From a virus (Duplodnaviria; Heunggongvirae; Uroviricota; Caudoviricetes): a stretch of 64,000 nucleotides of DNA. The notes under the pieces were generated by a model, which did no database searches, was not told the origin of the DNA, and saw only the letters and a list, made by a program, of their open reading frames with translations. Numbering within the stretch: the stretch's first letter is position 1; each line of letters begins with the position of its first letter. Made by a program: the position numbers and the translations under genes. Where the stretch lies: the IMG/VR virus record IMGVR_UViG_3300013099_000019, one strand, 5' to 3'. Positions 15,624 to 40,822 of this stretch are shown piece after piece.

Positions 15624-16511
15624 ATGAGTATTGGAACAGATCCCGAGTTCTTTATTAAAGATAAAGAAACTGGCAAATTTTTAAATGCCGAAACAATGTT
15701 CCCAGGCACAAAAGAGGAACCATTTATTATGAAAAGTGGTGCCGGTCTTCAAACAGACAATGTATGTGTAGAATTTGCAAGTCCTGTTGCAGAAGATGGA
15801 AAAGACATGGTTAATAAGTTAAAAGCTGTATTTGGAGAACTTATGTCTATGTTGCCTGAAGGTACAGATATTGATGTATCACCATCGGCAAATTTTGATA
15901 AAGATCAACTTCAATCAGATCAAGCTCAATTGTTTGGTTGTTCTACTTCTTATGATGCTTGGGAATTAAAAGCTAATGATCCTGCTGACGCCTCAACTAC
16001 TAATCTTAGAAGTTGTGGCGGACATATCCACATAGGCAAAAATGAAGATGATGGTAATGATTTTCTTTATGATCCATATGGAAAAGTTGATGTTGTAAAA
16101 ATGTGTGACACTTTCCATGGTATTATAAGTGTTATTCTTGATAACTCCGAAGCTTCTGTGGAAAGACGTAAAATTTATGGAAAAGCAGGAGATCATAGAG
16201 GAACTCCTTATGGTGTTGAGTATAGAACGTTAAGTTCCTTTTGGTTGAAATCACCAAGTCTTGTAATGCTTATTGCAAGTCTTACACAAAATATTCTTGG
16301 TATTATTAGAGAAAACAAGAATGAGGCAATTATTAAAACTATCGGTGCTGCTAAGATTCAAAACACTATCAACACAGGAGATGTAAAAGTTGCAAAAGAA
16401 ATTTTAGATAATTTTTTGATGGAACATTTATCTGAAGATTCTAAGTATTACTTAGCAGAATGTATGAAAATTGAGTATGATTTTAAAAAAGAATGGTCTT
16501 TATCTGTATAA
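15624..16511 (+). CDS. GCS2 / glutamine-synthetase-like amidoligase, paralog 1
   Basis: N-terminal GTDPEFF (the GS/GCS2 G.[DE]PE[FL]F motif) and a downstream CGGHIHIG (HxH metal site). It has three paralogs in this window. Confidence 0.55.
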   Translation: MSIGTDPEFFIKDKETGKFLNAETMFPGTKEEPFIMKSGAGLQTDNVCVEFASPVAEDGKDMVNKLKAVFGELMSMLPEGTDIDVSPSANFDKDQLQSDQAQLFGCSTSYDAWELKANDPADASTTNLRSCGGHIHIGKNEDDGNDFLYDPYGKVDVVKMCDTFHGIISVILDNSEASVERRKIYGKAGDHRGTPYGVEYRTLSSFWLKSPSLVMLIASLTQNILGIIRENKNEAIIKTIGAAKIQNTINTGDVKVAKEILDNFLMEHLSEDSKYYLAECMKIEYDFKKEWSLSV

Positions 16512-16545
16512 ATAAAATTAAATGTATTAAGAGAGGAATATTTAA

Positions 16546-17298
16546 ATGAAAATCGGAATTCCAGTAGCAAAAAGTAAAACTCAAGTATTTATTAATCAGG
16601 CTTATGTTAATTTTGTTAGTGAGTCAGGCTTTGATCCAATACTTATCAATGACTATAATGACATCACTTTTATGGCGCAAATTTGTGATGGTTTGCTTTT
16701 GCCTGGTGGTATTGATCTTGAACCTACTTTTTATGGAGAAGATAATGTAGGAAGTATAGGCTCTGATCCTGAACGTGATGATTTTGAACGTCAGGTTCTT
16801 CAAGCTTTTATCCTCGCTGGAAAAAAAGTATTTGGTATTTGTAGAGGCTTCCAATTAATGGTAAGAGAGTTTATTATTGGTCATGAAATAAAATGTGCAG
16901 TATTTCATCAACATGTTAGTAATCACTCTCTAGCTAGTGATAGAAATGCTAAAAGAAGTACTCCTACACATAGTGTTTACGCAAACATGCAAGAATTGTA
17001 TGGAGAAAAAAATCATACAGATATGTTTGTAAATAGTATGCATCATCAAGCACTTATTGCTACAAAAGTACTTAATATTGAATTTAAAAATGGAAATACA
17101 ATTAAAGAAACTGCCCAAACTATTTTTGGTCTTAAGACTAAAAATGTAAAGGAACATATTGTAGAAGCAGTAGATATTACTATAAATGGTTGTAAATTAA
17201 GAGGAGTTCAGTGGCATCCAGAAGAGCTTAATGATGTTAAATTACTGCAAACATTTTTTGCAGAAAATAATAAGGTTTTACAACATGGAAAAGGCTGA
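16546..17298 (+). CDS. class-I glutamine amidotransferase / peptidase C26 (gamma-glutamyl hydrolase-like)
   Basis: Catalytic GICRGFQLM (nucleophile Cys), then HHQAL and GVQWHPE, in the PuuD/C26 arrangement. Confidence 0.7.
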   Translation: MKIGIPVAKSKTQVFINQAYVNFVSESGFDPILINDYNDITFMAQICDGLLLPGGIDLEPTFYGEDNVGSIGSDPERDDFERQVLQAFILAGKKVFGICRGFQLMVREFIIGHEIKCAVFHQHVSNHSLASDRNAKRSTPTHSVYANMQELYGEKNHTDMFVNSMHHQALIATKVLNIEFKNGNTIKETAQTIFGLKTKNVKEHIVEAVDITINGCKLRGVQWHPEELNDVKLLQTFFAENNKVLQHGKG

Positions 17299-17533
17299 TA
17301 CAAAAAAAGCAAAATGGTTAAGTACCGTAACTTTTACTAATGGTGTTGCTATAAAACAGCATATTTTTTCAAAAGATATAGCTAATTTTATAAAGACTAG
17401 CAAAATAACATTACATTTAGAACTTGATAAAATACACTCTTATGTATTTCCTTATTTATTAAATGAAGCTAAAAAACAAATCTATGAAGTAAAAAAAATA
17501 GAGGTAACAATTTTAGACAATGAAAACAAATAA
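17295..17533 (+). CDS. hypothetical protein
   Basis: Internal start MEKADTKK chosen; the ORF overlaps the upstream stop. Confidence 0.35.
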
Positions 17534-17909
17534 ATTTTTTGTGTACGGTACTTTAAAAGTTGGAGGTCGTTTTGCAACCAAATTTGATGGTCATAGAACT
17601 TCTGTAAAAAAAGCTACTGCAAACGGCTCCATGTATTCTGTAGGTAATGGTAATTTTCCAGCAGTAATGTTCAATACTAACAATAAAATTTTTGGAGAAA
17701 TACACGAATATAAAAATGAAGAAGAAATACAGAAAGCTTTTAACCGTATAGAAGGTTTTTATGGTGAAGGTGACTCTGACAATTTATATAATATATTAAA
17801 AATAAAAGTAAAAGATACTGATGGAAATACTGTAGAGTGTTTAACTTATGAGTTTAATCATAGTGTAGATTGTCTACCAAAAATAGACTCAGGTATCTGG
17901 GAGATTTAA
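17520..17909 (+). CDS. AIG2-like gamma-glutamyl cyclotransferase
   Basis: N-terminal FFVYGTLKVGG is the AIG2/GGCT YGTL signature. Length is 129 aa. Confidence 0.6.
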   Translation: MKTNKFFVYGTLKVGGRFATKFDGHRTSVKKATANGSMYSVGNGNFPAVMFNTNNKIFGEIHEYKNEEEIQKAFNRIEGFYGEGDSDNLYNILKIKVKDTDGNTVECLTYEFNHSVDCLPKIDSGIWEI

Positions 17910-17912
17910 ATA

Positions 17913-18206
17913 ATGGAAATTATAAGTCTTGTAAGACAAAGTAATGATGTAGCACCTGAAACTTTTATTGTAGGTCAAAGTCCTATGAAAAATATTCAGG
18001 ATATGGGAGGACCTAAAATTTCTAAAATTAAATATTGGGCTATAAGTACTGTATATGATAAAGTATTTAGAGGTCCTGTATATGTAATAGAATTTAAAGA
18101 CTCTACCATAAAAAGAGTAATTCCTGCAGATTCTGGCATAATTGATATTGCTGTAGAGACTGCTATAAAACAAAAAGAAGCTGAGCTTCCAAATTTACCG
18201 GAGTAA
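17913..18206 (+). CDS. hypothetical protein
   Basis: 97-aa ORF. Confidence 0.4.
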   Translation: MEIISLVRQSNDVAPETFIVGQSPMKNIQDMGGPKISKIKYWAISTVYDKVFRGPVYVIEFKDSTIKRVIPADSGIIDIAVETAIKQKEAELPNLPE

Positions 18207-18208
18207 AA

Positions 18209-18910
18209 ATGAAAAAGAAAATTCTTGTAGTAAATGGTAATTATTATGTAAATGCTATTACAGCACTTGGAAATAAAGAAGATTTTGTATTTGATATTGA
18301 TATATTTATGCAAAATCCAAAAGATTTTAAACTTGTAATGTTTACTGGTGGAGCAGATGTAAGTCCTAGTTTGTATAACCATACAAGTCCTAAAGGTTTG
18401 TGTGGTACAAATGCTGCTAGAGATGCAGAAGAAGTACCTATCTATGAAATTGCCCTTAATTTAGGCATTCCCATGACAGGTATTTGTCGTGGTAGTCAGC
18501 TCTTAAATGTACTTAGTGGTGGTACCATGATTCATCATCTTGATAGTCATGGAATTGGTGGAGAACATGGTGCTATGTCAAACACCTCTAAAGAAGCATT
18601 TAACGTAACATCTACACACCATCAAATGAGTATTCCGGGGGAAAAAGGGTACGTAGTTGCATGGGCTTCTCCTAAACGTGCAACAATGTATGTAGGAGAC
18701 AAAGATAAACCTTACGCCTATTCTGGACCAGAAGTAGAAGCTATTTACTATCCAGAACATAAGGTATTTGCTGTACAATACCACCCAGAATATATGAATA
18801 AAGATAGTGCAGGTTATAAATGGTATGAGCAAGGTGTAAAAGACTTGCTTGAACTTTCTACTGAAGATTTTACAAAAAAGTATGTCTCTACACAAGTAGC
18901 AACTGTTTAA
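18209..18910 (+). CDS. class-I glutamine amidotransferase / peptidase C26, paralog 2
   Basis: GICRGSQLLNV, HHQMS and VQYHPE form the same catalytic triad arrangement as the ORF at 16546. Confidence 0.7.
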   Translation: MKKKILVVNGNYYVNAITALGNKEDFVFDIDIFMQNPKDFKLVMFTGGADVSPSLYNHTSPKGLCGTNAARDAEEVPIYEIALNLGIPMTGICRGSQLLNVLSGGTMIHHLDSHGIGGEHGAMSNTSKEAFNVTSTHHQMSIPGEKGYVVAWASPKRATMYVGDKDKPYAYSGPEVEAIYYPEHKVFAVQYHPEYMNKDSAGYKWYEQGVKDLLELSTEDFTKKYVSTQVATV

Positions 18911-18954
18911 ATCTTTTAGGGATTTTTGGGGTAGAGGTACTGTTTAATGACAAT

Positions 18955-18985
18955 TAATAAGTGCTCTTATGTAAATGTAAGGGCA
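18955..18985 (+). other. 11-bp near-perfect hairpin (aagtgctctta...taagggcactt) in intergenic region
   Basis: Inverted repeat with one mismatch and no trailing T-run. Confidence 0.4.
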
Positions 18986-18999
18986 CTTAAAGGTATGAT

Positions 19000-19518
19000 A
19001 TGACACTATTAGAAGAAGAAATTGGGAAAGAAGTTTATATAGGAGGTAGTAATGTAGACAACTTTACACCAATGTCAGTATTTATTGAAAAAAGTTTATT
19101 TGCTTTTAAAAATAAAATAGAAAAAATAGAAGTAGATATAACTGAAGAACTTATAGCAGCTCATGGTATTTTAACTACTGCTTTGAGTATTCCAAATAGT
19201 ATACCAGAAGATACTTCAATATTTATAATTCTTCCTGATGCAGATGAAGAAAGTAATAGTTATATTTTAGAAGTAGAATCTATATACCTATTACAAAAAA
19301 TTGTCGAAGCTTTAGTGGATAAACATGTAACCGAAAAAGATGCAGAAAATGTATCTGACTATATTTTAAATTTAAAAAATCAAAATATAGAAGATATTTT
19401 TATACTTTACGGTTATAACATAACACTATCCTATAGAATTATGGATACAACTTTAGAACAGTTAGTAAAAGAAAAAAATCATGCTTGTTTACAAAGTATT
19501 GTAAGGAGTCAAATATGA
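19000..19518 (+). CDS. hypothetical acidic protein
   Basis: 172-aa ORF. Confidence 0.45.
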   Translation: MTLLEEEIGKEVYIGGSNVDNFTPMSVFIEKSLFAFKNKIEKIEVDITEELIAAHGILTTALSIPNSIPEDTSIFIILPDADEESNSYILEVESIYLLQKIVEALVDKHVTEKDAENVSDYILNLKNQNIEDIFILYGYNITLSYRIMDTTLEQLVKEKNHACLQSIVRSQI

Positions 19519-19871
19519 AAAAGGTAGAGCTTACCTATTATTTAGAAAAAACAAAAACATATCAGGGCAGACTACTTGGACTTATAGATAAAGAACAATT
19601 TGCACATATTTATAATAGAGCTTCAGATGTTACTAGTAAAGTAAGTACTTGTCGAACAATAAATTTAACAGAGCTTAATAAAGCTAGTTATTTAAATAGA
19701 AGAATTGTTATGGCTGTTAAAAGTAAAAAAAACTCTGGTTTATTTATTTCAAGACCTTTAGCTGAAATTTATAACTGTATCATGACTCAAGAAGGTACAG
19801 AAAATAAAGAAGTAGAAAGTATAAGTTTTCTTGATAATGAAGATAATTGGTTAACTTTAGAATTAGTATAG
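19515..19871 (+). CDS. hypothetical protein
   Basis: Start set at the ATGA overlap (MKKVELTYY). Confidence 0.4.
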   Translation: MKKVELTYYLEKTKTYQGRLLGLIDKEQFAHIYNRASDVTSKVSTCRTINLTELNKASYLNRRIVMAVKSKKNSGLFISRPLAEIYNCIMTQEGTENKEVESISFLDNEDNWLTLELV

Positions 19872-19878
19872 GTACTAT

Positions 19879-20634
19879 ATGATTTATACAAATTTTCTTC
19901 CTGGTTATGAATTTAAAGTAAGAGATGACTTTCCTATAAAAAATTATGGTGCCTTACTTCCAAATTCAAAAGGGTTTGTAGCTTATTCTAACAACATGTT
20001 TGGTTTTAATACAGGAAATATATCAAGTAAAAATAAATTGGTATTAACCAGAAAAGGCAAAAAAGGAAAAGATAGACTTGAAATTATATCTTTAACCTCG
20101 CCTATTATATATGACGATGCATTTGCAAAAGAAGAACCGGAAATTTTTAAAAAAGTATACAAACAAAATACAGTTTTAAAAACAAATATTATTGTAACAA
20201 ATATTTTAGAAATGTCTAATTTATCTTTTATAGCTTGGTGTACAGCTTATAGATTATTTATTATTAACAGTTTTAATGCAAGTAATTATAATTTAAAAAG
20301 GTTACCAAAAAAAGAAAGTCATGCTTTTAATAAAATTAAAAATATTGGACATATTTTTAATATCGATCGTACAGCAGCTATATTACAAGTATCTGAAAAA
20401 ATTCAAAGACGTATTATTGTACAAGGATTAAGAGAAGTAGAAAGATTACTTTTTAATCATTTTATAAAAAATTTATTAGCAATTTCTTTTATGGATGAAC
20501 GGCCTGTGTTAAATTTATTAAATTATTATAAGCATGTAAGTGCATCAAAAAAAGCAATAAAAGAAGTAGAAATTTTAAAAAATATTATAGTTAAAGATGG
20601 TTTAAAAGCAATTGAAAAACACATAGACTTTTGA
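19879..20634 (+). CDS. hypothetical protein
   Basis: 251-aa ORF. Confidence 0.5.
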   Translation: MIYTNFLPGYEFKVRDDFPIKNYGALLPNSKGFVAYSNNMFGFNTGNISSKNKLVLTRKGKKGKDRLEIISLTSPIIYDDAFAKEEPEIFKKVYKQNTVLKTNIIVTNILEMSNLSFIAWCTAYRLFIINSFNASNYNLKRLPKKESHAFNKIKNIGHIFNIDRTAAILQVSEKIQRRIIVQGLREVERLLFNHFIKNLLAISFMDERPVLNLLNYYKHVSASKKAIKEVEILKNIIVKDGLKAIEKHIDF

Positions 20635-20641
20635 GGCAAAA

Positions 20642-21442
20642 ATGTTTTATATAGGGTCTGAAATTATAATTATAAGTTCAAATATAAAAAGAAAAAGTGG
20701 ACCAAGAGTAGGTAGTATAGGTACTGTTATAGGTGTTAAAAAAATACTTAATTACAAAAAAGATTTACATATACAACCTTTAAAAGTACTTTTTACACGC
20801 TATGGTTATGAAAAAAATAAAAGATTTGAAATTAAACGAATATATGTAAATACTCCAGATATGTTCTTAAATATAAATAATTTAAATTTTAATTATAAAA
20901 AATTTATAAATAAACTAAGTAGACAAGCCATTAAAAATGATTTTAGAGAGCCTTGTGTAGTAGCTTCTCCAATAAATGTTTTTAATAATGATGTAATTAA
21001 ATATTTATTTGTTTATCTTAAAAATAATAGTGTAAGAAATGAGTTAAATATTATAGCTTATGCAAGACATAAGGAGTATAAAAATATAATTAAAAATACC
21101 CCACCTTTAGTAAGAGAAATTATACGTAGATTATTACGTGATTTAGATAATAAAGCCCTTATGCTTAGGTTACACGATCTCCCTGAATCTGCTATACTAG
21201 ATCTTTTAAAACTTATACATTTACTTACAGCTTTATACACTAGAAATGAGAATTTGAATAGTAAATTTATGGATCATATATCTTCAAATTCAATTTGTAA
21301 AAATTTATTTATGGAGGTAGAGTATAATAATCTAAAAAATAATTTTAAAGGGCTGTATAATGCTTCTTTTAAATTTGCTGATACGTTTAAAAAAGTAGTA
21401 ATAAAACAAGGACAGTTAGTCTATAAAGCACATCAGGAGTAG
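20642..21442 (+). CDS. hypothetical protein
   Basis: 266-aa ORF. Confidence 0.5.
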   Translation: MFYIGSEIIIISSNIKRKSGPRVGSIGTVIGVKKILNYKKDLHIQPLKVLFTRYGYEKNKRFEIKRIYVNTPDMFLNINNLNFNYKKFINKLSRQAIKNDFREPCVVASPINVFNNDVIKYLFVYLKNNSVRNELNIIAYARHKEYKNIIKNTPPLVREIIRRLLRDLDNKALMLRLHDLPESAILDLLKLIHLLTALYTRNENLNSKFMDHISSNSICKNLFMEVEYNNLKNNFKGLYNASFKFADTFKKVVIKQGQLVYKAHQE

Positions 21443-21444
21443 TT

Positions 21445-24400
21445 ATGTCGGAGTTAGCAATAGAGTTGATGATTAAAAATATAAAAGCTGAATTTACTAA
21501 TCGTGTTATATTTAGTTATCTTAGATTTAATCCTGAACAAACTGGTGGTATTGAAGTAGATGTAAATGAAAAAAGTATAAATATAAATTTAACATTTAAC
21601 AATGAAATCAGTACTATTTATATACCTATTCCTTATATTCTAAATGGTGTAGAATTTCTTAATAAAAATGATGTTGTACGTCCTACTTGTAAATATCTGC
21701 ATAAAGAACTAAATAAAGAGTTTAGTTACTTAGAAATAATCAATGAAATATTTCTAGGAAGTGTAGATTTATTTTTACCAGAAATATACTGTAAAAGTAA
21801 AGCTAATACTATGCAATTAATTAAGTATGGTTATGAAAATAATAGCCTTGCTTATACAGTATACACTATTCAAAAACAAATTAATTATTTTGTTAATCTT
21901 CTACCTTTACATAATACTTTTATGAATTCTTGGGTAATGAATAAAAGAATTACTATTATAGACCCTAATTTTGATGAGATTCATGATCCAGAAAAACAAT
22001 ATGAATACCAAGTAGAAAAAAATAGACTTTATTTTGATAAAGGTTGGACATCTTTAGGCCTATCAGATGGAAGTTTAGCAAGTCATAATTATATATTATC
22101 TTATGACGTCCGTAATCTTACACCTTTTGGTCAAAAATTTCATAATCCTCAACGTAATTTATATTCTACTTTTGGTATGAAAGGCAGTGAACAGCCACTA
22201 TTACAAACACAATCTATGAAAAATTTGGCTGATGCTGGTATAAGTAGGACAGGTTGGAATTTACTCACTGTATTTGTAGATATACCTGATGTTTGGGAAG
22301 ATCAGATAATGGTAGATATATCTCATGCAGATAAATTTACTGAAGCAACAAAAAAGTATATTTGTTACGGTAAAACTAAAGCAGTAAAAGGAGATAAACC
22401 TTGGTATAATTCTATTTTATATACAGACCCTGAGGATAAAAAAGTAAGGTTTGATATAGTATGTGATGAGGCTACCGTAACTGATATAAAAGATAGTAAA
22501 TCTGTAGTAGGTGGTGTAGTATATGATGTAAAAGAAATTGTTGTTACGTATAAACGCTTTTTAAAAGATGGTGCTAAAATAACAAATTTAGCAGCTAATA
22601 AAGGAATTATACGTCTTAAAAAATTAGGTTATGCTATTCACCCAATTACAGGAGAAAAACAAAAAATAGACGTAATTGTTTCAAGTAAAGCTGTATTAAA
22701 ACGTAAAAATTATACACAAATACTTGAAGCACTACTTAATACTGTTAATGATAATTCTCCTATAATAATAGATGACTATGCTGAAACATCTGAAGCAGAA
22801 ATCAAAAGTACTATGAAAAGTAAAGGTTACAATGAAGAAGGTGTTTGGAAATGTAGTACTTACGCTGGAGAATATAAATGTGTTTGTGGTAAAGTATTTT
22901 GGGGAACAACTCATGATGCAGATGATACTACATGGACAAAAGAAAGACTCAATAAAACCAATACTCGTGGGCATAGAAGTTCAGGTTTAAAATTTTCAAC
23001 TATAGAATTTAGAGCATTAAACACTAGATTTGGTAATAATAATGCCATAGAAAAAGAAATTCTATCTTATGCTAGTGGTGCTAAAGACATAAGAGAATGG
23101 ATAAATGTACTCCGTTCAAAACTTGGAAAATTTATTTATAACTCTGGAACAATAGACATATATGATATTAAGCCTGCAATTACTAATGGCGTACTATATT
23201 CAAAAGAACAACTTAAAGATACCATTGCTGATTCAAATAAACATTTGGAAGGTTTTTATCTTAAGTTACCAGTAAAATATCAACTTGTTTTAAGTGAAGC
23301 TGGTGAGGTATTATCTGATGGATTTCCAAGTTCTGTAGGAGAGACCATTAATGGAATACCTGTTAAAGAAAAGATTGTTATTGACAAAATATATGTTCCG
23401 TATTATAATCTAAGAAAAAGTTGGAATCACTCTGTAGGTAAATACGGTTTAAGTGATACAAGTAATTTGCTTAATATTTTAATAACAATGTGTCATCGTT
23501 ATAAAGATGATCCAGAATCAGGCGTAGGATTATCACTTATCTATAAAGCTATTTATAATTACTTTAATTGTGTCAAAGAAAGAGTAAATTCAAAAAAAGG
23601 TGATATAAATAAATTAGGTATGTCTGTTCGTTATCCTTATTCAGTAAAAGCTGTTGCAACTTTAAGTAATAGTATACCTAAAAATACTGTTCAAATACAT
23701 AAAGATATGGCAAACAGTTTGAATGTTAAAGAGGGAGACGTAGTTTTAGTAGAAAGATTCCCTTGTTTAGGTTTTATGTCTATTCGTCCTCAAAAAATAA
23801 CTATAACTTCTGATAAAAGTTGTAAATTTACTATAAGGGCAAGTGGTAATAGTTTAGGATCTCTTACTCTTGACTTTGATGGTGATGTTATCTATTTAGC
23901 CTCATTCCATAGTCCTGCGGCAAAAAAGCTTTTAGTAAGTGAGTGGAATAATCCTAATAAGTATTGCATAGACTATATAAATAAATTTAATGCAAAAATG
24001 GGACATCCAAGAACAAAAGAGATGTCTCTATCTGATTACGACATTAAAATTTTTGAACCTTTAACAGTAGATTCTCATGCCGAAATTATAGGAAAGCTTA
24101 CAGGAGTAAAAAGTTTTACAGGTCCTATTGTAGCACTTGCTTATAATTTATTACGTATTATGGAAAATTCTCCTATTGAACACACAGATAAAGTAAAAGC
24201 TGGTATAGAAGTATTTATTGATACGGTTGCAAATTCTGTATTTAAACAAAAACATGGTAAAGAATCTTTACATAAAATAGTAATGGATGCAGTATGTACA
24301 GCAGATGAACAAGTACTTGTTGATAATGGTTTTGAACCCGAAATAGTACAAGTTGTGTGCTCAACTATTAGAAAAAGGGCAGTTGAACGTAAAATAACTG

Positions 24401-24729: not shown

Positions 24730-24749
24730 AATTAAACGGAGGAAGGTGT

Positions 24750-25145
24750 ATGGCTAAAATTTTAGGACTCAGTGTAAATCGTTGGGCTGGGCTCGGAAGA
24801 GTTATGGGAAATCCAGAAATGACTGGGGAATGGTGTCGTTTGTACTTTAAAACAGTTGTTCCTGAAAATAACAATGGAGAATGGTCAGAAATAGAGTGTA
24901 TTGTACCACTTATGACTAGTAATCCTAAAACTATTAACACATTGCAACAGTTTGTTCAAGATGAACGACAGTTGTATGTTGAGGGTTATGTAAAAGGCTG
25001 GCAAGAACAGAATGGAACATTTAATTGTGGAGTTATTATTAATTCCATTAAACTTGGTTCCAAAACAATGTTTGATCCAGATGCTCAAGCAAGTCAAGGA
25101 GGCGGTAGTCCCCAAAGTAACATGCCTGGGTTTCCAGCAGGCTAA
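24750..25145 (+). CDS. SSB-like OB-fold single-stranded DNA-binding protein
   Basis: NRWAGLGRVMGNPEM resembles the SSB N-terminus (LIGRLGRDPEL). LYVEGYVKGW resembles the SSB core strand. The C-terminal tail is Gly/Gln-rich. Confidence 0.5.
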   Translation: MAKILGLSVNRWAGLGRVMGNPEMTGEWCRLYFKTVVPENNNGEWSEIECIVPLMTSNPKTINTLQQFVQDERQLYVEGYVKGWQEQNGTFNCGVIINSIKLGSKTMFDPDAQASQGGGSPQSNMPGFPAG

Positions 25146-25160
25146 TATTTAAAAAATTAA

Positions 25161-25186
25161 GGGCGTCTATAAGGCGCCCTTTTTAT
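25161..25186 (+). terminator. rho-independent terminator
   Basis: GC stem gggcg...cgccc followed by TTTTTATTT, directly after the SSB-like gene. Confidence 0.75.
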
Positions 25187-25203
25187 TTGGAGGTTTTGTA
25201 AGT

Positions 25204-26033: not shown

Positions 26034-27433
26034 TGGAAATACTTATTGATAATACTATACAAATTAGTAATGAACATGAATTTATAGCTAAATTTATAGC
26101 TAAAGAACTTACTTTTCCTAATCCAAAATTTGAAGAAGCAGTAGCATCAGGTAGATCTACTTGGGGCTTACCTCCAGTAATAAAAAATTTCTTTATTGAT
26201 AATTCAGGTATAGCAAATTTACCTCGTGGTTATATTGATCGTTTAAAAGAAATTTTAAATTATAATAAAATATCGTACAACTTAATTAATACTTGTAGTA
26301 CAGTTCCTGTAAAGCCTTTATATGAGCATACAATCCAATTAAGAGACTATCAATACTTGGCCTTACAAAATCTTGCAAAACACACTGAAGGTGTCTTAGT
26401 GGCCCCAGCAGGTAGTGGTAAAACTATTATGGGTATAGGCATTACTATAATGTCTAATCAGAAGCTATTATGGATAACTCATACAAAAGTTTTGGCTAAT
26501 CAATTTATAGACCGTGCAAAACAATTTATAACAAATTTTGATGCAGACGATATAGGTTATATAGGAGCAGGTGATTGGTTAATAGGTGATAAAATAACAG
26601 TTGGATTGGTACAAACATTAATACGTTCGCCAGAAAAATTAAAAGAAATATCTAATGATTTCGGTATAGTAATTGTAGATGAAACACATCATATTGCAGC
26701 AGTTACATTTACTGAAGTAGTAAGACAATTTAATCCTTATTACTTATATGGTTTAACAGCTACACCCACAAGAAGGGATGGTTTACAAAGTCTTCTTTTT
26801 CAAAATATCGGTCCTATACGGCACACTGTGCCAAGAGAGGCCGTAGCTAAAGGTAATCGTGTTGTCACTCCTACAGTAATCCCTGTAGAGTTAAATACTC
26901 CTATAACTCATCTTGAAAATTACCAAAAGATATTAAAATTTTTGGTAGAAGATGAAGTTAGAAATAATACTATTATAAATGACATAGTAACTGAATACAA
27001 TAAGGGTAATGTGTGTATTGTAGTTACTGATAGAAAAGCTCATGCAGAAATACTACTTGAACTTTTAAAAAAATTAGAAGTTAAGGTTGGTATAGCTACA
27101 GGGCATTATAATGATAAATTTAGAAAAACCACACTTAAAGCTTTAGAAAATAAAGAAATTAGTGTTTTAGTTTGTACTACACATTTACTTGGTGAAGGGT
27201 TTGATCATGCACCGTTAAATCGTCTTTTTATATGTTTACCTTTTAGAGATGAAAATAAATGTGAACAAATTGTTGGTAGAGTACAAAGATCTTGCGAAGG
27301 AAAAAAAGATGCTTTTGTATTTGATTACGTAGATATACTACACGGTCTTACCAGACATCAATTTAGAAATCCTGGAATAAAAGGTTGTAGATATAATGTG
27401 TATAAAAAATTAAAATGTAACATTAAGGCTTAA
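26033..27433 (+). CDS. superfamily-2 (DEAD/DEAH-like) helicase
   Basis: Walker A APAGSGKT, DExH-type box IVIVDETHH, and C-terminal helicase motifs (TATPTRRDG...VGRVQR). Confidence 0.7.
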   Translation: MEILIDNTIQISNEHEFIAKFIAKELTFPNPKFEEAVASGRSTWGLPPVIKNFFIDNSGIANLPRGYIDRLKEILNYNKISYNLINTCSTVPVKPLYEHTIQLRDYQYLALQNLAKHTEGVLVAPAGSGKTIMGIGITIMSNQKLLWITHTKVLANQFIDRAKQFITNFDADDIGYIGAGDWLIGDKITVGLVQTLIRSPEKLKEISNDFGIVIVDETHHIAAVTFTEVVRQFNPYYLYGLTATPTRRDGLQSLLFQNIGPIRHTVPREAVAKGNRVVTPTVIPVELNTPITHLENYQKILKFLVEDEVRNNTIINDIVTEYNKGNVCIVVTDRKAHAEILLELLKKLEVKVGIATGHYNDKFRKTTLKALENKEISVLVCTTHLLGEGFDHAPLNRLFICLPFRDENKCEQIVGRVQRSCEGKKDAFVFDYVDILHGLTRHQFRNPGIKGCRYNVYKKLKCNIKA

Positions 27434-27496
27434 AAATATATTTCGGAAAAGACGAAGTATTGTAGTGAGTTCTAGTACTTAATCTTGGAGGTATAT

Positions 27497-28597: not shown

Positions 28598-28607
28598 TGG
28601 GGGCAGT

Positions 28608-30209
28608 ATGCGTAATAACAAATGGGTATTTTTCCAGGTACCTTCAAAACCAGCCTTAAGTCTAGAAGAAGTAAGATATTGGAAAAATAATCTGGCTAAA
28701 ATTTTAAAAGTAGGGCTTGAATTTGAATTTAATTTACCTAATAAAAAAGGTTCTTGTAAAGGTACAAGTAATCATTGTCCTTGTATTCATAAAGTAGATG
28801 AAAATGATTGTTGGGAAAAATGTGTAAGAGAACCTATATGTAGAAAAGAATTCGGCGACAAATTTGAAGAAGAATGTTCACAACAATTATGCACAGGTTA
28901 TATAATGTACTGTGCTGTTTGTAAAAATTTTACACTTGATTGTGAAACTTGTGAGTTTCGATATGATCCAGAAAAAGACCCAGATAATATTAGAAATCGT
29001 TTAAGAGATGATTTTATGCCATCACAAAATTATGGAAGAATTAACGCTTCTGGTGTTCATGATGTTGTTTGTGATGGTTCTTTACTGGGTAAAGGGGCTG
29101 AAGGTAGAGGAGCTGAAGTTATTACTACTGGCCGACGTATAGATTATTGGGAATTTTTCAAAATGATTACAAAAATTATGAAAGATTCTTCCGCTAAAGG
29201 CGCTTATTTTAATGAACGTTGTTCTATACATGTCCATATATTAGCTAGTTATTACGGTAGTGAAGGTTTAGGTGGAGGACGTGCAATGTCTGAACTTGAA
29301 AAACCTTTACCTGAGATAGTTATGGCTAATTTTCATCAACTTTGTCGTAAATATCAAAATGCTATTACTTGGATGAGTGCAGGTTTAGATGATTATGAGT
29401 ATTTTACTCGTTGGGAAAAATTTAGACAGTCCATTTTAAATGTCTCACCTGTTAGTAATAGTATGCCATCAGTAATTAATATTATGGAAGAAAAAACAGG
29501 TAAATCCCGAGGTAAATATGGTTGGGTAAATTACATGTTTTGTAGATTTAATGATGATAATGATTTAACTAAATTTCATCTTGAAATGCGTTCATTGGAT
29601 GGTATCATGTCTCCGAGTGCTGTAACAGCTATGTCTTGTTTATTTTATGCTATGGTAATTAAAGCTATTGAAATATCAAGATACGGGTTATTAGAAGTAG
29701 GTGATGAAAAATGGATGAAAAATGCTGTGAGTGTTAAAAGCAGACTTCTAAATGGTAATGGTAGTTATGATAGTGCTAGACTTTCTTGTACAGCAGATTT
29801 AACGGAAGAAGATTTTGATTATTTAAAAAGAGAATCTTATGAACTTAATAATCAATTAAAACATATTCTTTTAAAATTAGGCCCTGTATACGAAGTTATT
29901 GAAAAATTAGCATATTCGCCCGCAGCTATAAGAAGGTGTGCTGGTAAATCTTGGAAAGAAATTGAAGAAGAGCTATCTGTATATATTCCAAAAGAAACAC
30001 AGCTTGAAAAATTACTTGCATCTCATATTGATATGCGTACTTTTGTTAAATGTGCAAATGAAAAAGAATGGTGTATCAATGTTATTAAAGATATATCAAA
30101 AGAAGAAAAAGAGGACGTATCAGAAGCTTTACAAACTATCGTTACTGCTAATAAAAGTGACGGTGAATACATTTGGTCTGATAACCTTGGAACAATGCTA
30201 AAAGTATAG
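28608..30209 (+). CDS. amidoligase-like protein, paralog 3, with Cys-rich insertion
   Basis: VGLEFEFNL (ExE) and ERCSIHVHILAS (HVH) recall the GCS2 core. A Cys-rich segment of roughly 80 aa lies between them. Confidence 0.45.
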   Translation: MRNNKWVFFQVPSKPALSLEEVRYWKNNLAKILKVGLEFEFNLPNKKGSCKGTSNHCPCIHKVDENDCWEKCVREPICRKEFGDKFEEECSQQLCTGYIMYCAVCKNFTLDCETCEFRYDPEKDPDNIRNRLRDDFMPSQNYGRINASGVHDVVCDGSLLGKGAEGRGAEVITTGRRIDYWEFFKMITKIMKDSSAKGAYFNERCSIHVHILASYYGSEGLGGGRAMSELEKPLPEIVMANFHQLCRKYQNAITWMSAGLDDYEYFTRWEKFRQSILNVSPVSNSMPSVINIMEEKTGKSRGKYGWVNYMFCRFNDDNDLTKFHLEMRSLDGIMSPSAVTAMSCLFYAMVIKAIEISRYGLLEVGDEKWMKNAVSVKSRLLNGNGSYDSARLSCTADLTEEDFDYLKRESYELNNQLKHILLKLGPVYEVIEKLAYSPAAIRRCAGKSWKEIEEELSVYIPKETQLEKLLASHIDMRTFVKCANEKEWCINVIKDISKEEKEDVSEALQTIVTANKSDGEYIWSDNLGTMLKV

Positions 30210-30246
30210 TGAATAGGTTATAACAACCCTATTTTTAGGAGAATTC

Positions 30247-31530: not shown

Positions 31531-31554
31531 CACAAGGTTAGAGAGGAAAAATAA

Positions 31555-33303
31555 ATGTGTGGAATTGTAGGAATATTTCCGTTTAATAATTTACAAGATA
31601 AACAAGAACAAGCAAGAAAAGAAGCTGCTTTATTTTTATTTACTGAGCTTTTACAGACTACCAGTGCCAGAGGAGAAGATGCTACAGGTGTAACTACATT
31701 ATTTGAAAATGGGGATTACATGATTCAAAAAATGGGTATCTCTTCTCCTAAATTTATTAGCCGTTTTGGAAATAAGGCAAGTGACTTTGAAGGCTATACA
31801 AGTTTATGTTTAAAAAATGAAAAACGTATAAAAGCTTTGATAGGTCATTGTAGAAAAAGCTCGGTTGGTAATACTTATGATAATGAAAATAACCATCCAA
31901 TTAAAGCAGGAGAAATTGTAGGTATCCATAATGGTACACTTAAAAATCATAATAAAATCTTTAAAAATTTAGAATGTGAAAGAGATGGTGTAGTAGATAG
32001 TGAAGCTATTTTTAGACTGATACAGCATTTCACTAATGATTGTAAAGAACCTCTTACACTTAATATTCTTGAAGAAACTGTACGTCGTTTGGATGGTTCT
32101 TACAGTTGTTTAACTTATAATGCTAATATTCCATATCAAATTGGTATTTTTAGAGATGCAAGACCTATGGAATTTGCTTTAATTAAAGGTTTAAACCTGT
32201 TAGTTGTAGCTTCAGAAAAGAAATTTATTGATAAAGCATTATATGATTACAATAAGTATGCTAAATTATATAAAACAAGTTTTAAAATGATTAAAGCTGC
32301 TGATGTGTCAAATGCTTCTTTTCTTAATAATTATGTGGGTATTATAGATCTTACCCAAAAAATTAATAAAGATACAATTATAAATGATTTAATAATTAAA
32401 AAAGATGTTTTTAAAACTGAAAAAATCTGGAAAAGTACTGATGTATATGATTATTATAATAGACGCAAACAAGTAAAAAATATTAATACAAAAAGTACTA
32501 ATGTAACCACTACTAAAACTACTGGTGTTACCGAAAAAAAGTCGGGTTTGACCTCCACTAGTTTTGCGGAGGGAGATACTACAAAACAAAGTGGTATTGA
32601 AGGAAAAATATTCTGTAAAGAGCTTAATAAGTATATTGATCCTGAATCTGTAGAGTATACTTCAAAAATAGGTTGTGTAGAAATTGCTAATACAGGTAAA
32701 AAAGTATTAAGAATTGAAGAAAATCCTATTATTGACGCTGAATTTATGAAAGTAGCTGATGTGACTCCTCCAAAGATTACTACTAAAGAAGTTGATTTAA
32801 ATGTAGATACAGATATAATTGAGGGTTCAAAAAATTCTAATGACTCTTTATTAAAATATAAAAGTAACGAAGATTTAGCAGAAGATATTGAAGCGAATGA
32901 TGTTAAATCCGTAGAAGCACTTCCAGCTTTCGCTCTAGCAAATAGGATAAGAAAACATGCTTATGAAGCTGCTTTTATAGACGGCGCAACTTTTTATAAA
33001 AAATTAGATGTTAATACTAAATTGGATAAACTGCAAAAAATCCTTAAGTTTTCTAAAAAAATTATAAGAATTTTAGCTTTAAACACTGAATTACGTTCTA
33101 TAAACAATAATAATGATCAATCTAAAAAGTATTGTATGGAAGAGTGTGTAAGAGAAGAAGATACTAAAAAAGAATTAACTACAGAAGATTTAAATAAACT
33201 GGTTTCTACAGGGGATAAAACTGATTGTAAATCTTTAATACTTTTAGAAAAAGCAATAAAAGAGGTTAATGATGGAAAGGCACATACTGCTGGTAAAATC
33301 TAA
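31555..33303 (+). CDS. class-II (Ntn) glutamine amidotransferase domain protein with long low-complexity C-terminal region
   Basis: N-terminal MCGIVGI has the Cys nucleophile at position 2, as in PurF/GlmS/AsnB, followed by ...GHCRKSSVG...HNG. The C-terminal half is Lys/Thr/Asp-rich. Confidence 0.65.
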   Translation: MCGIVGIFPFNNLQDKQEQARKEAALFLFTELLQTTSARGEDATGVTTLFENGDYMIQKMGISSPKFISRFGNKASDFEGYTSLCLKNEKRIKALIGHCRKSSVGNTYDNENNHPIKAGEIVGIHNGTLKNHNKIFKNLECERDGVVDSEAIFRLIQHFTNDCKEPLTLNILEETVRRLDGSYSCLTYNANIPYQIGIFRDARPMEFALIKGLNLLVVASEKKFIDKALYDYNKYAKLYKTSFKMIKAADVSNASFLNNYVGIIDLTQKINKDTIINDLIIKKDVFKTEKIWKSTDVYDYYNRRKQVKNINTKSTNVTTTKTTGVTEKKSGLTSTSFAEGDTTKQSGIEGKIFCKELNKYIDPESVEYTSKIGCVEIANTGKKVLRIEENPIIDAEFMKVADVTPPKITTKEVDLNVDTDIIEGSKNSNDSLLKYKSNEDLAEDIEANDVKSVEALPAFALANRIRKHAYEAAFIDGATFYKKLDVNTKLDKLQKILKFSKKIIRILALNTELRSINNNNDQSKKYCMEECVREEDTKKELTTEDLNKLVSTGDKTDCKSLILLEKAIKEVNDGKAHTAGKI

Positions 33304-33307
33304 TAGT

Positions 33308-34579
33308 ATGGATAATAATAAGAAGGAGGGTAGACAAGAAAATACCCTTCTTCGTGCAGCAAATACTACTAGAGATTACTTAAAACTAGACGCTGATGTT
33401 GTAAAAAATATTCATAGTTCAAAAAATGAATATTCTGATGACTTGTATCCTTTTAAAGCTTATGCTAGAGATATTAAAAGAGTAAAAGAACTACAAGAAG
33501 CAGGTATAATTAAAGAAAAAGATTTAAATAAAGTATGCTTCGTAACAACTAGTACTTTTAATAAATTTACAAAACAGCCTGAAAAACAATTTATTACTGC
33601 AATTTTAGATAAAAATTTTGATAAATTACTTATAGGAACAGACCCAGAATTACTTTTAATGCATAATAACGAAGTAGTTCATGCAAGTAATATACCTAAT
33701 TTCTCAAAACTTTCAAAATTCGGTAGTGACGGTGCCATGGCAGAATTACGCCCTGATCCAGCATTTACATCTAAAGGCCTTGTAGAAAATATACGTAAAT
33801 TATTAACAGATAATGAATTAACAGCTAGCATTAAAAAATATGATTGGTTATCTGCATGTTATTTTGAAAATGCTAATAGAGATTTTCCTGTAGGAACTCA
33901 TTTACATTTTGACAATCCTACAAAAATAAAAAATATTGATATGATGCAAAGAAAACGTTTATTTGCAGTAACCAATAAAATTATTGACGAACTACTTACA
34001 GTACCTATGATACGTTTAGATGGCCTTTCTGGACATAATAGAAGAGCTAAATGTAAAATGAGTCAGGTGGGCGGTTTTGGAAATAACTACGGTGTCGGTT
34101 ATGGATTTTTTGGAGAGTGGCGTGTCTGTGAAGGAAGATTAGAACACAGAAGTTTATCTGGATTAGTAATTTCTGATCCAAAAATTTGTGAGGCTGTGTT
34201 CGGTGTTGGACAAGCTATTGTTGAAGCAGTATACAAAGAAGCCATCAATAACGATTTAAACTCAGAATTTATTTTGCCCAAAAATTTTGATTCTAACACT
34301 ATATATTCAAAACTTTTTAAAGACTGGCAAAAAATTCCGCTAGCAAAGACTTTTAATTGTACAAAAACAACTAATTTTATGCGTAATATTATGGATAAAA
34401 GTTCCAGAGTAGATATTAGTGTTGAGTACATAAAAAGATGGTTAAAAAATATTAGAAAATTACCTACTTACGGAAAATATGAACACAGTGTAGAGTTTTT
34501 AGGAGAATTGTTATCTAAAAATTCAAAATCACTTGATAAATTAGATAAAAACATTAAACATAATTGGGGAATAATATGA
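33308..34579 (+). CDS. GCS2 / glutamine-synthetase-like amidoligase, paralog 4
   Basis: IGTDPELLLMH and VGTHLHFDNP. Start set at the ATG just after the upstream stop. Confidence 0.5.
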   Translation: MDNNKKEGRQENTLLRAANTTRDYLKLDADVVKNIHSSKNEYSDDLYPFKAYARDIKRVKELQEAGIIKEKDLNKVCFVTTSTFNKFTKQPEKQFITAILDKNFDKLLIGTDPELLLMHNNEVVHASNIPNFSKLSKFGSDGAMAELRPDPAFTSKGLVENIRKLLTDNELTASIKKYDWLSACYFENANRDFPVGTHLHFDNPTKIKNIDMMQRKRLFAVTNKIIDELLTVPMIRLDGLSGHNRRAKCKMSQVGGFGNNYGVGYGFFGEWRVCEGRLEHRSLSGLVISDPKICEAVFGVGQAIVEAVYKEAINNDLNSEFILPKNFDSNTIYSKLFKDWQKIPLAKTFNCTKTTNFMRNIMDKSSRVDISVEYIKRWLKNIRKLPTYGKYEHSVEFLGELLSKNSKSLDKLDKNIKHNWGII

Positions 34580-35625
34580 AAAAGACTTATGTATGGTATT
34601 CAGCAGCGACAGATGTTACAGGTAAAAAACTTGCAGAAGAGTTAGGGTGTGAGAGTGGTACTGCACGCCCTGCCGCAAAATTTGATAAAGTTATTTGTTG
34701 GGGAACAAAAACTAAAGATAATGTAAATTTGGCTCCAAAAAAAGTATTTAATCATCCAAATAATATTCAAGTAAACCGTAACAAATTAAGCGCTCTTGTA
34801 AAAATGAAAGATGTAAACTGTAACGTAGCTAGATTTTCTAAAAATGTAGCAGACCTTGAATTTCCTATGATTGCTCGTACAAAATATCATCAGGGCGGTG
34901 CAGGTTTCTGGCTTTGTTTAAATAAAACTCAAGTAACTCAAGCTGCAAAAGAAGGTGCCCAATATTATCAGAAATATATTGATATAAAAGATGAATATCG
35001 ACTACATGTAGTTGATGGTAAAGTAATTTATGCAGTAAAGAAGGTTGCACGTAAAAATCTTAAAGATGCTTTTGTAAATCATTATACAAATTACATTATT
35101 AATTATGCAGGTAAAAATAATATTAATGTAGATGCTGATTCACTTGCTTTTATTCTTAAAAGACTTGCACGTAAAATGGCTACAGGTGTTGATATGATCG
35201 TAAGATCTAACACTCGTGGTTGGAAATTTAGCAAAATTAATATTGAAAATCTTCCTGCTAACTTAAAGGCACAAGCACTTAAAGCTGTAGAAGCTTTAGG
35301 TCTTGACTATGCGGCAGTAGATTGCTGTATTACTGATGCTGATGATGCGTATATTATTGAATGCAATACTGGGCCTGGTCTTGAAGGAAGTTCTTTTGAT
35401 GCTTGGGTAAAAGCACTTATTAAGTTGATAAAACCTAAGGCTGATGCTAAAAAAGTTGTTTTGGCAAAGAAGAAGGTAGTTGGTGTTGGTAAGGAAATAG
35501 CAAAAGATGTTGTTAAAGGAAAACTTAAAGCCAAAGCTAAAATGATGGAAGCTATGGTAGATGCGGCTGATAACGCTCAACTTGAAGCATTAGAAAATCT
35601 TTGGAAAAAAATGGGTATGGCTTAA
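34576..35625 (+). CDS. ATP-grasp ligase (RimK/glutathione-synthetase-like)
   Basis: EYRLHVVDGKVIYAVKK (central ATP-grasp strand), then YAAVDCCITDADDAYIIECNTGPGLEG (the E-x-N Mg/ATP motif), then a Lys/Ala-rich tail. Confidence 0.6.
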   Translation: MKKTYVWYSAATDVTGKKLAEELGCESGTARPAAKFDKVICWGTKTKDNVNLAPKKVFNHPNNIQVNRNKLSALVKMKDVNCNVARFSKNVADLEFPMIARTKYHQGGAGFWLCLNKTQVTQAAKEGAQYYQKYIDIKDEYRLHVVDGKVIYAVKKVARKNLKDAFVNHYTNYIINYAGKNNINVDADSLAFILKRLARKMATGVDMIVRSNTRGWKFSKINIENLPANLKAQALKAVEALGLDYAAVDCCITDADDAYIIECNTGPGLEGSSFDAWVKALIKLIKPKADAKKVVLAKKKVVGVGKEIAKDVVKGKLKAKAKMMEAMVDAADNAQLEALENLWKKMGMA

Positions 35626-35644
35626 TATTTGATAGGGGTGTAGT

Positions 35645-36106
35645 ATGTGTAAATTTACTGTAGCTATAAATACAGAAAGTGTTGCAAAACAAGTAGCTAT
35701 ATTATTAAATAATAATAACAAATTAACCACTCATTACACTCCTTCAAAAATATTAAATAGCAGTACTTCTTATTGTTTAGAATATGGCGGATTTAATGAA
35801 AGAATTAAAGATGGTAGTAGAAAAGTAATAGGCGTAGTAGGTTACTCCTATTTATCTGAAGAAGTCACTTTAATTAAACATTTATGTATTGACAACATAT
35901 ACAGAAATAAAGGTGCAGCTACATCTTTAGTTAAAAAAGTTATAAGTATTTGTCCGACAATGTATGTACAAATGCATGTTAGAAGTAATAATAATGCTTG
36001 TTTATATTTAACTGAAAAACTTGGATTTATGTATATTTATCATAAAACAATGAGTAATTATTATATATTAGTGTTAGGGAGGGAAACGAGTGCTACGAAA
36101 AATTAA
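35645..36106 (+). CDS. GNAT-family N-acetyltransferase-like protein
   Basis: IDNIYRNKGAATSLVKKVI fits the GNAT motif A (R/Q-x-x-G-x-G/A). Length is 153 aa. Confidence 0.45.
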   Translation: MCKFTVAINTESVAKQVAILLNNNNKLTTHYTPSKILNSSTSYCLEYGGFNERIKDGSRKVIGVVGYSYLSEEVTLIKHLCIDNIYRNKGAATSLVKKVISICPTMYVQMHVRSNNNACLYLTEKLGFMYIYHKTMSNYYILVLGRETSATKN

Positions 36107-40812: not shown

Positions 40813-40822
40813 GAACAAACAT

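Follow-up and report, generated by a model that had tools for sequence, protein, structure and literature searches.

The phage amidoligase gene neighbourhood is said to have been predicted computationally by Iyer, Abhiman, Burroughs and Aravind (Mol Biosyst, 2009). In phiEco32, it comprises gp86 (COOH-NH2_lig), gp84 (Amidoligase_2), gp83 (a class-II glutamine amidotransferase, GATase), gp80 (ATP-grasp) and gp77 (AIG2), and LUZ24-like phages bear the same gene set (PMC3890496). In phages of this phiEco32/LUZ24 type, the genes for the shared families have the same orientation and are found with early or middle genes beside nucleic-acid enzymes. The function of the system was still termed unexplored in a 2023 paper (PMC10580990), and a full-text literature search yielded no experimental characterisation of a phage amidoligase system, in line with an earlier note on the DNA studied here, which had called such neighbourhoods never characterised experimentally. 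Here we describe a stretch of 64,000 nucleotides (the window) from the IMG/VR virus record IMGVR_UViG_3300013099_000019 (Caudoviricetes), in which proteins with the same roles as those of phiEco32 are encoded in two gene clusters.

Compared with the phiEco32/LUZ24 type, the window encodes four ligases instead of two, which bears out the high ligase dosage claimed by the earlier note, and adds two C26 hydrolases, a GNAT N-acetyltransferase and a second GGCT-like cyclotransferase. Two of its ligases (AL2 and AL4) carry a putative barrel domain and a third one (AL3) carries an insert with 12 cysteines and a winged helix. The window set is split into two clusters whereas the phiEco32/LUZ24 type forms one uninterrupted array, and the open reading frame (ORF) of ~180-200 amino acids (aa) between the two phiEco32 ligases, gp85, has no counterpart in the window. 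We give a somewhat better than even chance to the reading that these clusters represent an enlarged two-part amidoligase system of the phiEco32/LUZ24 type, with gamma-glutamyl-type ligation, extension, capping and removal and with a protein or protein-bound target weakly favoured. The gene neighbourhood as such is already known from the 2009 prediction; the enlarged split version, the recognition modules on the ligases and a protein family that we call the X family are new.

Organization of the two gene clusters

The island consists of two parts located at 15.6-18.9 kb and 27.5-36.1 kb, with ~8.6 kb of unrelated genes between them. All system genes are co-oriented despite the split, and the genes within each cluster either overlap or are separated by 2-37 nucleotides (nt). 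Since the X-family protein encoded directly upstream of AL1 (13871-15526) is probably an additional component, the system probably starts at 13871. After start codons had been reset using ribosome-binding sites and orthologue alignments, the features of the system and its surroundings were as follows:

1887-2678 (+): distal X paralogue, single unit (phmmer 4e-8 to 13871-15526)
7048-7611 (+): distal GGCT, GGCT/ChaC-fold cyclotransferase outside the clusters
13871-15526 (+): X-family protein, 551 aa, tandem duplication of a ~265-aa unit
15533-15548 (+): shared motif copy 1, TTTCGGAAAAGA.GAA, 6 nt past the upstream stop codon
15624-16511 (+): AL1, COOH-NH2 ligase type 2 without accessory domain (PF14395, 9.5e-13; phrog_3815 'COOH.NH2 ligase', 5e-55)
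16546-17298 (+): C26a, PuuD-like putative gamma-glutamyl hydrolase of the class-I GATase fold (Peptidase_C26, 1e-27)
17285-17533 (+): orfX, 82 aa, conserved by position only
17520-17909 (+): GGACT, GGACT/AIG2-like gamma-glutamylamine cyclotransferase (PF06094, 5.5e-15) with YGTL and LEG motifs
17913-18206 (+): u97, small conserved protein whose C-terminal tail is acidic and of the P.LP[ED] type; homologues lie directly upstream of C26b
18209-18910 (+): C26b, second PuuD-like C26 hydrolase (Peptidase_C26, 1.5e-21)
27441-27456 (+): shared motif copy 2, TTTCGGAAAAGA.GAA, 7 nt past the helicase stop codon
27497-28597 (+): AL2, COOH-NH2 ligase type 2 with a putative N-terminal CDC48-N/AbrB-like barrel (PF14395, 8.7e-16)
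28608-30209 (+): AL3, divergent Amidoligase_2-like ligase of the GS/GCS2 fold with an insert of 12 cysteines (residues 50-115) and, at the C-terminus, an acidic winged helix
30247-31530 (+): u427, fast-evolving, conserved in position; ~250-aa N-terminal domain and a basic low-complexity tail of variable length
31555-33303 (+): class-II (N-terminal nucleophile, Ntn) GATase with an MCGIVG N-terminus (GATase_6, 1e-11)
33269-34579 (+): AL4, COOH-NH2 ligase type 2 with a putative N-terminal CDC48-N/AbrB-like barrel, basic (PF14395, 5.3e-15)
34576-35625 (+): ATP-grasp, RimK-like ligase whose linker is rich in Lys and whose C-terminal helix is conserved (RimK, 1.2e-12; phrog_2599, 5.7e-34)
35645-36106 (+): GNAT N-acetyltransferase (Acetyltransf_1, 6.5e-8; weak rimI match, 2.7e-6), kept in the related loci L001-L003
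36090-36794 (+): u234, conserved neighbour after GNAT with homologues at the same position in L001-L003; membership uncertain

The spacer between the clusters (19000-27433) contains nine ORFs, which according to Pfam fall outside the amidoligase-system families: four unknown ORFs, a large RNA polymerase (RNAP) ORF, three small ORFs and a superfamily 2 (SF2) helicase.

21445-24729 (+): fused RNAP, single ORF of 1094 aa with beta (Rpb2_6) and beta' (Rpb1_2) domains
26033-27433 (+): SF2 helicase, 466 aa, last spacer ORF

The only convincing terminator-like hairpin between 13 and 41 kb is located in this spacer. It is a strong hairpin on the + strand (25159-25181), sits in the 58-nt gap before 25204, and its 10-bp stem, which includes 6 GC pairs, precedes a T run. 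The hairpin and the ~8.6 kb of unrelated spacer genes exclude a single operon for both clusters. The earlier note, which had described the island as contiguous and co-oriented, was thus correct about the orientation, which is the same throughout both clusters, and incorrect about the contiguity.

Both clusters are headed by one copy of TTTCGGAAAAGA.GAA, and these are the only two exact copies in the window. An exact common 12-mer is present in just 0.26% of random segment pairs with sizes matched to the leader regions, and the shared motif is suggestive of common regulation of both clusters. Near copies are located within ORFs at 38541 and 40280 and probably arose by chance. Sigma-70-like promoters were not more frequent than in shuffled sequence.

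Conservation of the system in other phages

The Leptolyngbya phage Lbo-JY46 (PP438436, 20.8-30.3 kb) encodes C26, GGCT, an AL1-like ligase (1.4e-42), C26, ATP-grasp, class-II GATase, Amidoligase_2 and another C26, as well as an X-family protein. These genes form one contiguous array, which lacks barrel-fused ligases and GNAT and has PncB- and PrsA-annotated genes directly upstream. In the metagenomic podovirus MW202697, genes for gatase1, COOH.NH2 ligase, a hypothetical protein, amidoligase, GATII and ATP-grasp lie directly upstream of DNA polymerase and DnaB. The single array of Lbo-JY46, together with the same core in phiEco32, LUZ24-like phages and MW202697, argues for one system and not two, and based on this comparison we assign the two window clusters as halves of one recurrent system. 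The families occur together in at least four unrelated phage lineages, so that the match to the predicted phage amidoligase neighbourhood, which the earlier note had drawn, is well founded.

A metagenome scan seeded with C26b recovered 52 related loci. Where the flanking sequence suffices, the recurrent order in these C26b loci is X, AL1, C26a, GGACT, u97, C26b, u172 and u118, and gene order in the related metagenome loci is kept at 37-53% protein identity. For cluster 2, synteny is seen in contigs of 238 and 269 kb, and L001 and L002 share the order RNAP, helicase, AL2, AL3, (small GATII), unknown, GATII, AL4, ATP-grasp, GNAT, unknown and RuvB at 35-48% identity. The locus L006 shows the full order, from the X genes through AL3, and has also kept the split layout, which is conserved within the giant-phage clade.

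Individual loci contain additional genes. In L006, an HNH endonuclease gene is inserted between AL1 and C26a. L009 carries a 488-aa ORF (3799-5265) between C26a and GGACT, which contains a GGAVRD motif and weakly matches a CCA-adding enzyme (E=0.027); a gap of corresponding size is present in L011, L012, L019, L022, L028, L029, L032 and L033, and the ORF is absent from the window. In L001 (11707-12561) and L002 (11688-12500), which are more distant relatives, AL3 and the u427 homologue are separated by an additional class-II GATase, a stand-alone protein of 270-284 aa with MCSIFG or MCAIFG at its start; neither the window nor L003 has this GATase. The helicase orthologues in L001 (6303-8804) and L003 (6353-8824) comprise 823-833 aa as opposed to 466 aa in the window, and the L003 protein holds an intein with a LAGLIDADG endonuclease, as detected by Pfam.

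Four ligases, three of them with accessory domains

AL1, AL2 and AL4 are mutual paralogues (~1e-8) that score 48-58 bits against PF14395 (cut-off 25). AL1 is homologous to phiEco32 gp86 (4e-22), and 318 GenBank phage records contain AL1 homologues, among them those of Pseudomonas and E. coli phages relevant to therapy. For AL4, tblastn gave no match among GenBank phages, and the same applies to the barrel-bearing AL2, the true start of which (27497) was set by a GGAGG site and orthologues. An alignment of 12 type-2 ligase sequences revealed invariant G-D-(P)-E, D...E, G-H-x-H and E-x-R residues, and the G.[DE]PE, ExE and HxH motifs that the earlier note had listed are real and likewise invariant in this set. 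None of the ligases matched PF00120 (Gln-synt_C). AL3 is Amidoligase_2-like (PF12224) by fold, its sequence score being below the family threshold. It displays the features of the glutamine synthetase (GS)/GCS2 carboxylate-amine ligase superfamily, i.e., a GS-like fold, acidic ligands for metal and ATP, and His and Arg, and its catalytic residues are also invariant; PDB sequence and profile searches with AL3 returned nothing usable. The count of four GCS2/GS-like amidoligases in the earlier note is therefore retained, with AL1, AL2 and AL4 placed by PF14395 and AL3 by fold.

The accessory domains on three of the ligases are new. AL2 and AL4 begin with a domain of ~90-120 aa that, as judged by alignment, is absent from AL1 and from the phiEco32, Lbo-JY46 and MW202697 ligases. 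A profile of this domain matches PDB chains of designed double-psi beta-barrels ('DPBB') with 7e-5, and designed proteins of this kind go back to the N domain of VCP/CDC48. When members were searched singly, CDC48_N was matched by three of eight and MazE/AbrB by one of eight. We therefore classify the domain, by its profile matches, as a putative cradle-loop barrel of the CDC48-N/AbrB type. Cradle-loop barrels are modules that bind proteins or DNA where their role is known. AL3 instead carries the 12-cysteine insert and the winged helix. The latter is acidic, with a mean net charge of -5.5, and is therefore unlikely to bind DNA, a role that we considered and disfavour.

Hydrolases and cyclotransferases

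Both C26 proteins contain the GICRG and HPE motifs, and these are invariant in all three aligned C26b sequences, as are C93, H192 and E194 of C26b. The solved proteins nearest to C26a are Lin1909 (1e-14) and PuuD (1e-7), and a weak match to the lipid II isoglutaminyl synthase GatD was also found (E=0.0023). The nearest relatives of the C26 pair are PuuD/SpuA-type hydrolases; however, the pair reached only 37.8 and 22.4 bits with the PuuD equivalog model NF008471 (cut-off 266), so that the C26 assignment holds at the family level only.

The substrates of GGCT and GGACT enzymes must carry a free gamma-glutamyl alpha-amine, and the product is 5-oxoproline. The GGACT protein scored 56.4 bits against PF06094 (cut-off 22.8), is homologous to phiEco32 gp77 (1.2e-6) and is found in most related loci. 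The distal GGCT shows a GGCT fold, a YGS[LN] motif and a catalytic Glu ~80 residues downstream. It is nearest to GGCT and ChaC, with BtrG/YkqA-type cyclotransferases among the fold matches, while PDB sequence and profile searches returned nothing usable. The two C26 hydrolases and the two GGCT-like genes, one inside the island and one outside, were thus correctly recognised by the earlier note.

GATase, ATP-grasp, GNAT and small proteins

The class-II GATase has its N-terminal catalytic Cys in place and scored 45.5 bits with GATase_6 (cut-off 27). Behind the GATase domain come a linker that varies and a helical C-terminal region that is conserved; a weak match to EgtC was obtained (1.7e-5) and no synthase domain could be recognised. 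The class-II GATases of phiEco32 (gp83; L004 11593-13623) and MW202697 (L007 12316-13551) end in CxxC-rich, zinc-ribbon-like segments. This end is lacking in the GATases of the window clade, where a 12-cysteine insert is instead located on AL3. ATP-grasp, with its true start at 34576, scored 48.3 bits with RimK (cut-off 21) and 1e-8 with rimK_fam, and is homologous to phiEco32 gp80 (1.9e-14). Weak D-Ala-D-Ala-ligase-like matches were also seen, and PDB sequence and profile searches yielded nothing usable. We considered the Lys-rich tail of this protein as a DNA binder and rejected it, the terminal helix alone being conserved. All three assignments made by the earlier note in this group (class-II Ntn-GATase, ATP-grasp and GNAT) agree with the Pfam results, and its proposed check of the families by profile or structure left the ligase paralogues in the GS/GCS2 fold and the C26 and GATase proteins in their families.

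Among the small proteins, orfX corresponds to ORFs of 83-89 aa after C26a in L006 and L009, with no significant similarity. The acidic P.LP[ED] tail of u97 recurs among its homologues, is only partly conserved and contains no GG. We tried u97 as a carrier or tag that must end in Glu; E or D occupies the final position in just 13 of 19 distinct homologues, so that an obligatory terminal Glu of the Pup or LysW kind is unsupported, and the carrier idea is retained as no more than a lead. The tail of u427 is probably disordered; this protein has nearly no detectable homologues and no family match.

The X family

The X family travels with the amidoligase system in three phage lineages, its homologues being found within the arrays of Lbo-JY46 and of the podovirus MW202697, and the protein encoded at 13871-15526 is probably a further system component. 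The two repeats of this protein correspond to two separate genes in L006 and L009. The family comprises at least 939 cluster representatives, and near-invariant positions hold Cys, Asp, Asp, Glu, Trp, Ser, Arg, His and Gly. No match to Pfam was obtained even at E=10 with 6 and 61 members, no relative was found in the PDB, and there is no relation to phiEco32 gp87 or gp88. An assignment as aGPT-Pplase is unsupported, given the lack of a Pfam match at E=10.

Proposed mechanism and target

Enzymes of the GS/GCS2 fold convert a carboxylate into an acyl phosphate, which is then coupled to an amine, and in GS, glutamate-cysteine ligase (GCL), PuuA and PafA this carboxylate is the gamma-carboxyl of Glu. 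AL1-AL4 would accordingly activate a carboxylate at the expense of ATP, the Glu gamma-carboxyl being the most likely one, and join it to the amine of the target. If free Glu is used, the product would be a gamma-glutamyl amide with its alpha-amine and alpha-carboxylate free. The RimK-like ATP-grasp enzyme could lengthen this adduct at the free alpha-carboxylate and GNAT could cap the free alpha-amine. The Ntn-GATase may provide ammonia for amidation or, like EgtC, hydrolyse a gamma-glutamyl amide, and C26a, C26b, GGACT and GGCT may take off or recycle the adduct. A gamma-glutamyl amide fits the gene set: it is what the cyclotransferases require, PuuD-like C26 enzymes hydrolyse it, and RimK-type ATP-grasp and GNAT enzymes can act on its alpha-carboxylate and alpha-amine, respectively. 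Such a logic of writer, extender, capper and eraser would cover every enzyme present, whatever the target.

As target, we weakly favour a protein or protein-bound amine because three of the four ligases bear putative recognition modules, and because a RimK/RimI-like pair is found together with a PafA/Dop-like fold. A small amine (polyamine or glutathione-like) ranks behind, followed by DNA and then the cell wall. The three roles put forward by the earlier note (tagging of a virion or host protein, manipulation of glutathione or polyamines, DNA base hypermodification) all stay at the level of candidates. Several points speak against our proposal. All chemical steps are read from family membership, and the barrel is assigned from weak profile matches (7e-5 to designed barrels; 0.01 to 1e-4 in Pfam). 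AL1 has no recognition domain, and cyclotransferases and PuuD-like hydrolases are best known for their action on small molecules. Furthermore, the clusters are parted by the hairpin and the spacer genes, their shared motif TTTCGGAAAAGA.GAA was picked out post hoc, and L006 has no GGACT at the corresponding position. A more far-reaching form of the protein-target proposal is a conjugation machine for proteins or macromolecules, Pup-like and non-homologous to Pup, which would set a reversible gamma-glutamyl or peptide mark on proteins of the host or the phage during takeover. Here the four GS-fold ligases, three of them with target-recognition modules, would be the writers, ATP-grasp the extender, GNAT the capper, and the two C26 proteins, the two cyclotransferases and the Ntn-GATase the erasers, with X as a previously unrecognised enzyme family. 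We regard this form as doubtful.

The most serious competitor, though in our estimate rather unlikely, is a small-molecule pathway in which a free amine such as a polyamine is gamma-glutamylated, extended, acetylated and released, or a glutathione-like peptide is made or destroyed, shifting the polyamine or thiol pools of the host. It would explain why the nearest relatives of C26a and C26b are PuuD and SpuA-type gamma-glutamyl-gamma-aminobutyrate hydrolases, why cyclotransferases that need a free gamma-glutamyl alpha-amine are present, and why the closest match of the distal GGCT is to GGCT and ChaC, enzymes that break down peptides of the glutathione type. A GS-like GCL, the ATP-grasp enzyme GshB and GGCT constitute the canonical gamma-glutamyl cycle, SpeG-type acetylation of polyamines is a GNAT reaction, and AL1 lacks an accessory domain. 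However, the ligases fall outside the PuuA/GS (PF00120) and GshA families, scores with PuuD and GshB-like models are far below the curated cut-offs, and neither an oxidase nor a dehydrogenase of the kind that partners the Puu enzymes was seen. For small substrates, one would also not expect three of the ligases to bear barrel, winged-helix and Cys-rich modules.

Hypermodification of DNA, in which ligases and amidotransferases would build an amino-acid or polyamine adduct on a phage base, appears improbable to us. Lee et al. reported that amidoligase and glutamine-amidotransferase-type Pfam genes are co-associated with 5-HMUDK/aGPT-Pplase thymidine-hypermodification clusters in viral contigs (PMC8989533), the module lies beside replication or transcription genes in several phages (RNAP, helicase and a RuvB-like gene in the window), and the X family often occurs as a paralogous pair, like the aGPT-Pplases. 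Yet a Pfam scan of 63 ORFs of the window, which is part of a larger genome, detected no hydroxymethylase, 5-HMUDK, aGPT-Pplase, TET/JBP or DpdA, and the X family has no Pfam match. The missing thymidine-hypermodification genes among the scanned ORFs and the acidic AL3 winged helix lean slightly against a DNA target. Still less credit is due to a modification of cell-wall precursors, where amidated or extended peptidoglycan stem peptides would block superinfection. This suggestion is attributed to Iyer et al. 2009 in PMC10580990 and is consistent with the D-Ala-D-Ala-ligase-like and GatD matches. These matches are marginal, though, neither cluster encodes a Mur-ligase-type partner, a signal peptide or a membrane protein, and the hosts of the phages that carry the module differ widely (proteobacteria, cyanobacteria and that of the window phage). 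That the genes are unrelated accessory genes, acquired singly and without a common function, is scarcely credible. The separation of the clusters by unrelated genes and the hairpin would agree with it, as would the variable content of the relatives (L006 without GGACT, the extra GATase of L001 and L002, the nucleotidyltransferase-like ORF of others), but it is already contradicted, on sequence comparison, by the co-occurrence of the same families in the unrelated lineages and the synteny of the metagenome loci, and the GC content is uniform.

We thus retain the enlarged two-part amidoligase system as our preferred reading. The window carries the richest version of the system seen in this analysis, and its genes occur in hundreds of sequenced phages and many metagenomic giant phages. 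Should a protein or DNA prove to be the target, the system would represent a viral covalent modification of a new type, and should it be a small amine, a new phage route to rewire the polyamine or thiol pools of the host. The recognition domains fused to the ligases, the unannotated X family with its enzyme-like residues and the clear split into writers and erasers offer handles for experiments and make the window a good entry point to a question that dates from 2009.

Other features of the window

The window is AT-rich with a uniform GC content of ~29%. Nearly all transcription up to ~60 kb is from the + strand, and at least five tRNA genes are encoded. GenBank phages gave no nucleotide or protein match to the island as a whole, the RNAP ORF, AL3 or AL4, including a tblastn search with the fused RNAP ORF, which is ~45% identical to its counterparts in the 238- and 269-kb contigs. 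Because GenBank phages match none of these and the homologues of window genes come from contigs of 238-325 kb of uncultivated viral and metagenomic origin, we conclude that the carrier of the system is an uncultivated, AT-rich giant phage lineage. A phage-encoded outer-membrane beta-barrel protein (OmpA/PagL-like, 47270-47800) suggests a Gram-negative host. The phage also encodes a SleB-type cell-wall hydrolase (9502-9951).

Translation-related genes are found at 4215-4625 (PTH2 peptidyl-tRNA hydrolase), 8145-9494 (CCA-adding/poly(A) polymerase-type enzyme with an HD domain) and 39012-39416 (YqeY-like protein). A group I intron (RF00028, 79 bits) is located at 40819-41091 (+), directly downstream of a tRNA-like gene (40742-40813) for which ARAGORN reads an aberrant 2-nt anticodon; the region 40742-41091 may be an intron-associated tRNA gene. 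The gene for a TROVE/Ro60-like protein (44513-45889, +) adjoins tRNA genes, including tRNA-Met (44394-44468), and a number of long non-coding gaps, the stretch at 40.6-43.5 kb having few ORFs. This region could be an RNA quality-control module of the Ro/Y-RNA type; no Y RNA reached the Rfam threshold. At ~60.1 kb the coding strand switches, and a block on the - strand (60162-63765) encodes a methionine aminopeptidase, a phosphoribosyl-pyrophosphate-synthetase-like protein, an HD-domain protein and an AAA_28 (NadR-kinase-like) protein. This block and the PncB- and PrsA-annotated genes of Lbo-JY46 may both serve NAD salvage or counter-defence.

Comparison with known gamma-glutamyl and conjugation systems

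The earlier note had compared the island with PuuA/PuuD (PauA/PauD), where a ligase of the GS superfamily performs an ATP-dependent gamma-glutamylation that is followed by the action of a C26 hydrolase. This analogy stands for the C26 proteins, which are nearest to the PuuD/SpuA type, and fails for the ligases, which belong to PF14395 and Amidoligase_2 and not to the PuuA-type GS (PF00120); PuuB and PuuC are also absent. With pupylation (PafA, Dop and Pup), the similarity is confined to the fold: there is no Pup_ligase match in Pfam, no GGQ or GGE terminus, no proteasome and no Mpa. The amino-group carrier protein system LysW/LysX, where LysX is an ATP-grasp enzyme of the RimK family, and BtrJ/BtrG of butirosin biosynthesis resemble the window system in employing a RimK-family ATP-grasp enzyme and, as proposed here, a gamma-glutamyl group as a removable handle. 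In contrast to these systems, the window has neither a LysW-like zinc-finger carrier with an EDWGE terminus nor an acyl carrier protein. Judged by such defining features, the window system is not of the Puu, Pup, LysW or thymidine-hypermodification type; its gene content instead places it in the amidoligase neighbourhood of the phiEco32/LUZ24 type.

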